From sequence record OR670491: DNA of 64,000 nt, one strand, 5' to 3'. Position 1 is the stretch's first letter, and every line of letters starts with the position of its first letter. Both the position numbers and the translations under genes were made by a program. The notes beneath the pieces were generated by a model. The model saw nothing but the letters and a program-made list of their open reading frames with translations. It did no database searches and was not told where the DNA came from. Source of the DNA: Escherichia phage vB_EcoM_JNE01. This document shows, piece by piece, positions 62,697 through 63,293 of this stretch.

Positions 62697-63293
62697 ATGA
62701 AAATAACCGAATTAGATGAAGCAATTCGTGGCTTTTCTAATACGTTTTTCAGTGGCGGGGCAGATGGTGCTGACCGCCATTTTACATTATATGCTCTTGA
62801 AAAGGGATTCAATGTAATCAACTTTTCTTTCAGGGGTCATAATCATAGTGTAGATGAAGATACAATATTAGAAATACCTTCTCATATTTTATGTGATAGT
62901 ACAGTACTGAAACAATTAAACATGGCATGTTACTCTTTGCAGCGTAAAGTACCTAAGCCTGGTTCTTACGTATTCAACTTACTAGCACGTAATCGTTATC
63001 AAATTCTAAACACAGAACGAGTTTATTGTATTGCAAAAATCGAATCACCAACTAGAGTTAGTGGCGGTACTGCATGGGCAGTTCAAATGTATATGGATAG
63101 TGTTGACAATCCTGAAATCTATTGTTATGATATGAATTCAAAAAGTGTGTATACATTTGACAATACAAATAAAGAGTTCGTTGAAGTATTCACTATTCCT
63201 GCACCACATGGTAATTGGACAGGAATTGGTTCTCGAAATGCAACTGTTAAGCATTTTGAGCATTTCAAAACATTTTTCAAGGAAGACAAATGA
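62697..63293 (+). CDS. SLOG/DprA-like Rossmann-fold nucleotide-binding protein (tentative)
   Basis: FSGGADGADRHF and later SGGTAWAV motifs resemble SLOG superfamily (LOG/DprA/YpsA) glycine-rich loops; immediately upstream of thymidylate synthase. Confidence 0.35.
   Translation: MKITELDEAIRGFSNTFFSGGADGADRHFTLYALEKGFNVINFSFRGHNHSVDEDTILEIPSHILCDSTVLKQLNMACYSLQRKVPKPGSYVFNLLARNRYQILNTERVYCIAKIESPTRVSGGTAWAVQMYMDSVDNPEIYCYDMNSKSVYTFDNTNKEFVEVFTIPAPHGNWTGIGSRNATVKHFEHFKTFFKEDK

Follow-up and report, generated by a model that had tools for sequence, protein, structure and literature searches.

We analysed a 64,000-nt stretch of the genome of Escherichia phage vB_EcoM_JNE01 (OR670491), hereafter the window, in which an open reading frame on the plus strand (positions 62697-63293, from ATG to TGA, stop codon included) encodes a predicted stand-alone SLOG-fold protein of 198 residues, of the YpsA/YAcAr/cpYpsA-like kind. 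The frame sits exactly where the original prediction placed it, as do the two glycine-rich motifs named there, FSGGADGADRHF (residues 18-29, nt 62748-62783) and SGGTAWAV (residues 122-129). The first contains loop 1, S19-G-G-A-D-G-A-D26 (62751-62774), which follows the first strand and carries the GxD signature of the YpsA clade; the second is loop 2 (63060-63083), a GGT loop at a helix N-terminus, S122-G-G-T-A-W-A-V129. Two further motifs, likewise on the plus strand, complete the picture: a family-specific helix motif, L95-L-A-R98-N99-R-Y-Q102 (62979-63002; consensus LLRRNxYQ), and a C-terminal strand motif, G176-I-G-S-R180 (63222-63236), which corresponds to the 'VGSR' strand at the N-terminus of DprA.

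The SLOG gene is closely packed with three neighbours on the same strand. Upstream lie an 87-residue ORF (phrog_13789; 61784-62047), kept upstream of SLOG among close relatives, and a 213-residue ORF (phrog_15894; 62050-62691) whose stop falls 5 nt before the SLOG start; neither has a Pfam or NCBIfam match. Downstream lies thyA, whose first 236 codons (63290-64000) are present before the window ends. As originally claimed, the SLOG stop and the thyA start share an ATGA, with the thyA ATG at 63290-63292 and the SLOG TGA at 63291-63293, and an AGGA Shine-Dalgarno-like site (63280-63283) stands six bases before the thyA ATG. Because the successive spacings are 2, 5 and -4 nt, the arrangement suggests a single four-gene operon running from the 87-residue ORF, its first gene, to thyA. 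Its likely start, judged from sequence, is a sigma-70-like promoter at 61737-61764 on the plus strand (TGGACA, 16-nt spacer, TATAAT, with the TG of an extended -10), which agreed with the consensus at 11 of 12 positions; a scan of the region returned 25 such matches against 21.2 in shuffled sequence, no enrichment, so that the operon promoter is a consensus match alone. Transcribed from this promoter in one operon with thyA, the SLOG protein would probably be made early. Just upstream of the putative operon are genes for a MoxR-type AAA ATPase (58856-60187, plus strand) and a 474-residue VWA-like protein (60264-61688, plus strand; 'N4 gp25-like' in phage phAPEC6). Two perfect 12/12 sigma-70 consensus promoters occur at 58567-58594 and 58659-58686.

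The partner sharing the ATGA is an ordinary thymidylate synthase. The downstream ORF matched Pfam Thymidylat_synt (PF00303) with an E-value of 3e-69, and its full-length orthologue in Escherichia phage Turkey5 is canonical: it is closest to E. coli ThyA (E 2e-79) and keeps the catalytic Cys and the Asn of the FNI motif. We considered whether it might be a hydroxymethylase, a possible sign of base modification, and rejected this because of the closeness to E. coli ThyA and the intact catalytic motifs. Relative to E. coli ThyA, the phage enzyme carries an insertion of about 33 residues (119-151; window 63290-64000, Turkey5 locus L001 13600-14529).

The SLOG gene is real, well beyond chance, because homologue numbers, selection, model confidence and invariant motifs all say so. 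A first protein search returned 105 homologues, and a profile search run exhaustively over 1.84 billion cluster representatives (50% identity clusters) recovered 2,592 at E ≤ 1e-3, 676 of them at E ≤ 1e-30. Against three relatives, dN/dS was 0.18-0.21. An AlphaFold2 model built from a 57-sequence alignment, with identities down to 26%, reached a mean pLDDT of 97.4 and a pTM of 0.92. Across the same 57 sequences 16 positions are invariant (S19, G20, G21, G24 and D26; A77; L95, R98 and Q102; G123, G124, T125, W127 and A128; G178 and R180), and conservation is at least 90% at N99, D134, G176, I177 and S179. Over positions 61700-64000, the window shares 98.9% identity with Turkey5 (351 kb) and about 78% with the jumbo phages 121Q, PBECO4 and phAPEC6 (genus Asteriusvirus). 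The deposited annotation of phAPEC6 (MK817115.1; L100 3870-4463) breaks the SLOG orthologue into gp261c and gp260c, and an intact 197-residue frame at that site encodes a protein 77% identical to ours.

That the protein has a SLOG fold and belongs to the SLOG family is close to certain. The original prediction had proposed this assignment and had named structure prediction among its checks, an unrelated fold being the outcome that would speak against it; AlphaFold2 and Foldseek came out for SLOG, and fold, loops and closest match agree. The model is a Rossmann-like three-layer alpha/beta fold that superposes on solved SLOG members, and its structural matches include the ThsA SLOG domain, DprA and a Moco carrier protein. 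The sole confident PDB match, and the closest structure, was 3imk, the 'putative molybdenum carrier protein' of Syntrophus aciditrophicus, which we take to be a member of cpYpsA (PF12694). This likeness is what ties the window protein to cpYpsA; it differs from 3imk in an added helical insert (residues ~45-105) and a beta-hairpin region (~141-165), and in its length of 198 against 158 residues. Both halves of the superfamily loop pattern are present, namely GGxxGx[D/E/M] after a core strand and, where a helix begins, a second loop of the form GG(x)T. A GxD/E signature in the first loop defines the YpsA clade (PMC6459960), and it appears here as G24-A25-D26, with G24 and D26 invariant among the 57 sequences.

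Sequence methods are nearly blind to this fold. The sole Pfam match of the protein was YAcAr/DUF2493 (PF10686; residues 5-45, E 9e-4, 19.5 bits against a gathering threshold of 28.2), which covers only the first beta-loop-alpha-beta unit. Sub-threshold matches among the 57 relatives went to YAcAr in 15, to DprA in 3 and to cpYpsA in 1, and no other Pfam family was matched by more than 4 of them. For cpYpsA the window protein itself had no Pfam match, and the best relatives scored 17-19.5 bits against a gathering threshold of 26.2; LOG (PF03641) gave no Pfam match, an NCBIfam search with the protein found nothing, and PDB sequence searches with the protein, the family profile and the family member P0225 gave nothing usable. 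One GenBank record labels an orthologue 'DUF2493 domain-containing protein'. Because the GxD signature is invariant and the Pfam thresholds of YAcAr and cpYpsA are both missed, we file the protein as a divergent family of its own in the YpsA-like part of the SLOG superfamily, a member of neither of these Pfam families.

Database labels point elsewhere. PHROG 768, 'DprA-like DNA recombination-mediator protein', matched the SLOG protein with an E-value of 4e-23, and several RefSeq records carry that product name. 'DprA-like' had also been part of the original prediction, where it holds at the level of the superfamily and fails at that of the DprA family. The protein had no Pfam DNA_processg_A match at E ≤ 1 (gathering threshold 29.6 bits). 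DprA/Smf proteins (PF02481) present a 'VGSR' strand followed by a SGxAxGxD strand, whereas the window protein has SGGADGAD near its N-terminus and GIGSR at its C-terminus; and DprA has a SAM-like N-terminal domain, a winged-helix C-terminal domain or both, neither of which is present here, all 198 residues being accounted for by the SLOG core and the beta-hairpin, with no further Pfam domain. When the GIGSR unit was moved to the N-terminus in silico, 6 of 8 sequences gave junction-crossing DprA alignments that started at GIGSR, all sub-threshold (E 0.0014-0.18), as compared with sub-threshold matches for 3 of the 57 native sequences. This weak but consistent signal hints at a circular permutation relative to DprA, as in cpYpsA. 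We therefore excluded the DprA family, given the missing Pfam match, the missing accessory domains and the reversed element order, and regard the RefSeq and PHROG product name as an over-annotation, which our analysis corrects. The LOG family was excluded on a different residue: the LOG/PpnN motif PGGxGTxxE corresponds to SGGTAWAVQ in the window protein, and the position of the catalytic Glu (Thr+3) is occupied by the invariant Ala128.

We then asked which neighbours the gene keeps. In a close clade of 19 loci with SLOG identities of at least 46% (Rak2/121Q-like phages), the shared order is a MoxR-type AAA ATPase, a VWA protein, an ORF of ~85 residues, an ORF of ~215 residues, an optional ORF of ~100 residues, SLOG, an optional ORF of ~115 residues and thyA. 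The ATPase and VWA genes accompany SLOG and thyA in nearly all 19 loci, and the counterpart of our 213-residue ORF in all of them. The optional ORFs, both missing in the window phage and 121Q, gave no Pfam assignment; the upstream one encodes a helical protein and the one between SLOG and thyA an acidic coiled-coil protein, and most Rak2-like relatives have both (L009, L011-L019, L022 and L069; about 7706-8014 and 8590-8960). SLOG abuts thyA in three loci only: the window phage with Turkey5 (4-nt overlap), 121Q (1-nt overlap) and L007 (2-nt gap). In the other 16 a spacer of ~300 nt separates the two, with a called ORF in 12 of the 16. Among 59 distant loci, none has thyA within 8 kb of SLOG. 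The translational coupling on which the original prediction built is thus real and specific to this lineage: the overlap is a gene order particular to Rak2/121Q-like phages with no family-wide functional link, and, as weak evidence for function, should not be counted as such.

The distant relatives have another neighbour. SLOG relatives are encoded on 269 of the viral contigs scanned, and 79 loci were fetched; the distant set comprises the 59 with SLOG identities of at most 40%. A deoxynucleoside monophosphate (dNMP) kinase gene lies directly upstream of SLOG on the same strand in 35 of these 59, usually with a 4-nt overlap, and within four genes in 41. The SLOG-coupled kinase scored 53.9 bits against Pfam DNMK (gathering threshold 27.1) and matched phrog_139 at E 5e-49. 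Counted by SLOG cluster, the pairing occurs in 27 of 56 clusters at 90% identity, 12 of 30 at 70% and 5 of 10 at 50%. The window phage has such a kinase too, a T4 gp1-like enzyme at 46662-47294 on the plus strand (247.6 bits, E 1.4e-75 to an HMM of the SLOG-coupled kinases), followed by the tail sheath gene (47383-50046, plus strand); it lies 15 kb upstream of SLOG, and the window lineage appears to have separated the pair. All kinase-paired phages are T4-like myoviruses with the kinase placed before the tail sheath gene, and in many distant T4-like jumbo phages SLOG stands between the two.

Gene content varies between phages in the stretch from gp13 through the kinase to the sheath gene. Acb1, KptA, a Lar-like protein, a DNA methylase, PTH2 and a metallophosphatase each occur there in one phage or another, and other genes can intervene between kinase and SLOG. 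An Acb1-like anti-CBASS gene directly follows the kinase-SLOG pair in one locus (L103 5591-6058, minus strand), and a KptA/Tpt1 RNA 2'-phosphotransferase gene directly precedes it in another (L102 3456-3959, plus strand). A TnsA-like endonuclease is annotated directly after the tail tube genes in Turkey5 (L001 3391-3819; roughly window 53.08-53.51 kb), and a Tn7_TnsA-like_N match lies near the sheath gene of a distant 146-kb phage contig (L002 1-35).

The domain also occurs inside very large proteins. N4-like phage virion RNA polymerases are packaged and injected, and that of the N4-like Klebsiella phage Pylas has a SLOG domain at residues 986-1155, within the N-terminal third, found by tblastn with the window protein at E 9e-13; the copy in its gene, Pylas_065 (L107 3046-12474), is complete. 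Because it travels in an injected polymerase, this domain would act before any phage gene is expressed. SLOG domains are likewise contained in a 5,801-residue protein of the crAss-like phage cr130_1 and in uncultured-phage proteins of 2,277-3,411 residues, and these embedded copies retain every conserved motif, loop 1, loop 2 and the LLRRNxYQ motif among them. A Pfam scan of three of the uncultured-phage proteins identified NADAR in one (48.5 bits, gathering threshold 35.1, ~85 residues after SLOG), DUF4326 in another and an AlkB-like oxygenase in the third. Elsewhere in the family, a partial NADAR precedes the SLOG domain in P0225 and a histidine phosphatase domain does so in P0169, the N-terminal domain of P0221 has no Pfam assignment, and in the most divergent relative (L106) a NUDIX gene lies two genes upstream.

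These contexts fit the picture drawn by published comparative surveys of the Aravind group. SLOG domains were found in 31% of jumbo phages, mostly of a YpsA-like clade (PMC9503650), and YAcAr-type SLOG domains were noted in jumbo phages by Iyer et al. in 2021 and 2022 (PMC7824862, PMC9503650). The surveyed domains are fused to Macro, NADAR, Nudix and DUF4326 and were predicted to sense or process NAD+ or ADP-ribose derivatives, a role that the surveys themselves describe as a prediction, experimentally untested (PMC9503650, PMC7824862). The window family shares with these YAcAr/YpsA-like phage domains the partners NADAR, DUF4326 and Nudix. Linkages to the dNMP kinase and thyA are absent from the text of the one survey checked for them (PMC9503650). 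Our literature searches brought up neither a characterisation of any stand-alone phage SLOG protein nor a measured activity for one, and those on cpYpsA, on SLOG with dNMP kinase and on anti-Thoeris with SLOG found no characterisation of the window family.

We tentatively favour a role in conflict with the host, in which the SLOG protein is an early accessory factor whose target, for binding or cleavage, is an NAD+- or ADP-ribose-derived nucleotide, for example a host immune signal or an ADP-ribose adduct. Several observations make this our preferred reading: motif-intact copies occur in packaged and injected proteins and near NADAR, DUF4326 or an AlkB-like oxygenase; a partial NADAR precedes the domain in P0225; NUDIX and ADP-ribosylglycohydrolase genes each lie two genes upstream in one locus; the gene is partnered by an HTH-WYL-WCX regulator in Flavobacteriaceae; and in T4-like jumbo phages SLOG shares its variable stretch with a DNA methylase, a Lar-like protein, Acb1 and KptA. 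The predictions of the published surveys point the same way. The SLOG domain of ThsA, the Thoeris sensor of cyclic ADP-ribose isomers (PDB 7uxs), belongs to the same superfamily and provides a precedent for binding NAD+-derived immune signals; the window protein does not combine the effector-domain fusion and the close structural similarity to the ThsA SLOG domain that mark a ThsA-type sensor. With roughly 2,600 clusters (50% identity) the family is large, and it exists in two forms, a free and probably early protein and an injected-virion module; it is therefore a reasonable candidate for counter-defence that acts on nucleotide signals or adducts. Against this reading, the most frequent neighbour is the dNMP kinase and the neighbour in the window is thymidylate synthase, both enzymes of dNMPs, and fusion within very large multi-domain proteins is weak evidence of a common substrate.

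By analogy with LOG and ThsA structures, the glycine-rich loops S19-GGAxGA-D26 and G123-G-T125, together with R180 of the C-terminal GIGSR strand, may clamp a ribose-phosphate, with D26 predicted to contact the ribose. R98, N99, Q102, W127, Q130 and D134 would then set the specificity of the pocket. The known hydrolysis mechanism is unsupported because the LOG catalytic Glu is absent, and the protein may do no more than bind its ligand; alternatively, D26, which is invariant, and D134, which is highly conserved, could serve a cleavage mechanism unlike that of LOG.

The kinase and thyA linkages point to a different role, in the deoxynucleotide pool, where the SLOG protein would partner thymidylate synthase and dNMP kinase as, for example, a dNMP N-glycosidase, a base-exchange enzyme or a dNMP-channelling subunit. 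LOG/PpnN-group relatives are nucleotide 5'-monophosphate N-glycosidases. The role would also account for the ATGA overlap, for a linkage to thyA at the operon level in 19 of 19 close-clade loci, and for a coupled kinase that passes its Pfam threshold and recurs across half of the 50%-identity SLOG clusters, and, if true, it would extend phage nucleotide metabolism by a new step. It is the main rival of the conflict role; we nevertheless consider it somewhat unlikely. The kinase pairing may be inherited synteny in a variable insertion region; it is weakened as support for a dNMP role because the arrangement is T4-like, because unrelated accessory genes occupy the same region, and because none of the 251 collected family proteins is a kinase-SLOG fusion. 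Further points against a pool role are the 15 kb between kinase and SLOG in the window clade, the missing LOG catalytic Glu and the canonical ThyA, and a domain carried in injected virion proteins is hard to square with it. A bolder version, in which phage deoxynucleotide metabolism includes a so far unrecognised SLOG-fold enzyme, a dNMP N-glycosidase or base-exchange enzyme of non-LOG mechanism that edits, together with dNMP kinase and thymidylate synthase, the dNMPs released from host DNA, the virion copies doing the same at the start of infection, strikes us as a long shot.

The preferred conflict role overlaps with another account, which differs from it in chemistry only: a non-catalytic nucleotide sensor or sponge that holds a small nucleotide tightly and leaves it uncleaved, its purpose being sequestration or the regulation of a partner protein. 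Three of the structural matches, the ThsA SLOG domain, DprA and the Moco carrier protein, are binders, the absence of the LOG-type Glu suits a binder equally, and the regions fused to SLOG in the proteins of 2,277-3,411 residues and in P0169, P0221, P0225 and P0232 could be effectors under its regulation. As a stand-alone protein of 198 residues, the window protein has no effector domain to regulate, and its 16 invariant positions, D26 among them, and its conserved D134 fit catalysis as well; we rate this account as unlikely.

A DprA-like recombination mediator, which would bind single-stranded DNA and load a recombinase, is highly improbable: beside the PHROG 768 label and the RefSeq names there is the suggestion of a jumbo-phage survey that DprA/Smf homologues could serve as extra ssDNA binders (PMC7824862), set against a Pfam signal confined to three sub-threshold relatives, a closest structure that is 3imk and not DprA, an apparently permuted strand order, no SAM or winged-helix domain, and neighbouring genes that are not recombination genes. 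That the protein carries pterins or folates, providing or buffering methylene-tetrahydrofolate for the neighbouring thymidylate synthase, is barely credible, since 3imk owes its name to a guess made in structural genomics, most family members are encoded far from thyA, injected virion proteins contain the domain, and the conserved loops are the nucleotide-phosphate loops common to the whole superfamily.

The family is almost exclusively viral: among 185,579 species genomes, cellular genomes contributed 13 loci with one conserved SLOG peptide pattern. On a Bacteroidales contig, an ADP-ribosylglycohydrolase is encoded two genes upstream of the SLOG homologue. A C-terminal extension of ~100 residues (...VYVPDHK...GGWATV.R...), with no Pfam match, is shared by 16 family members (P0055, P0056, P0093, P0100, P0111 and 11 others), and at least one extended member is still flanked by the dNMP kinase and tail sheath genes (L098 7001-7912). 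In Flavobacteriaceae the SLOG gene and that of an HTH-WYL-WCX regulator are inserted together between miaB and topA, forming two-gene units on Paenimyroides and Flavobacterium chromosomes (L086 5965-7472 and L094 5974-7470).
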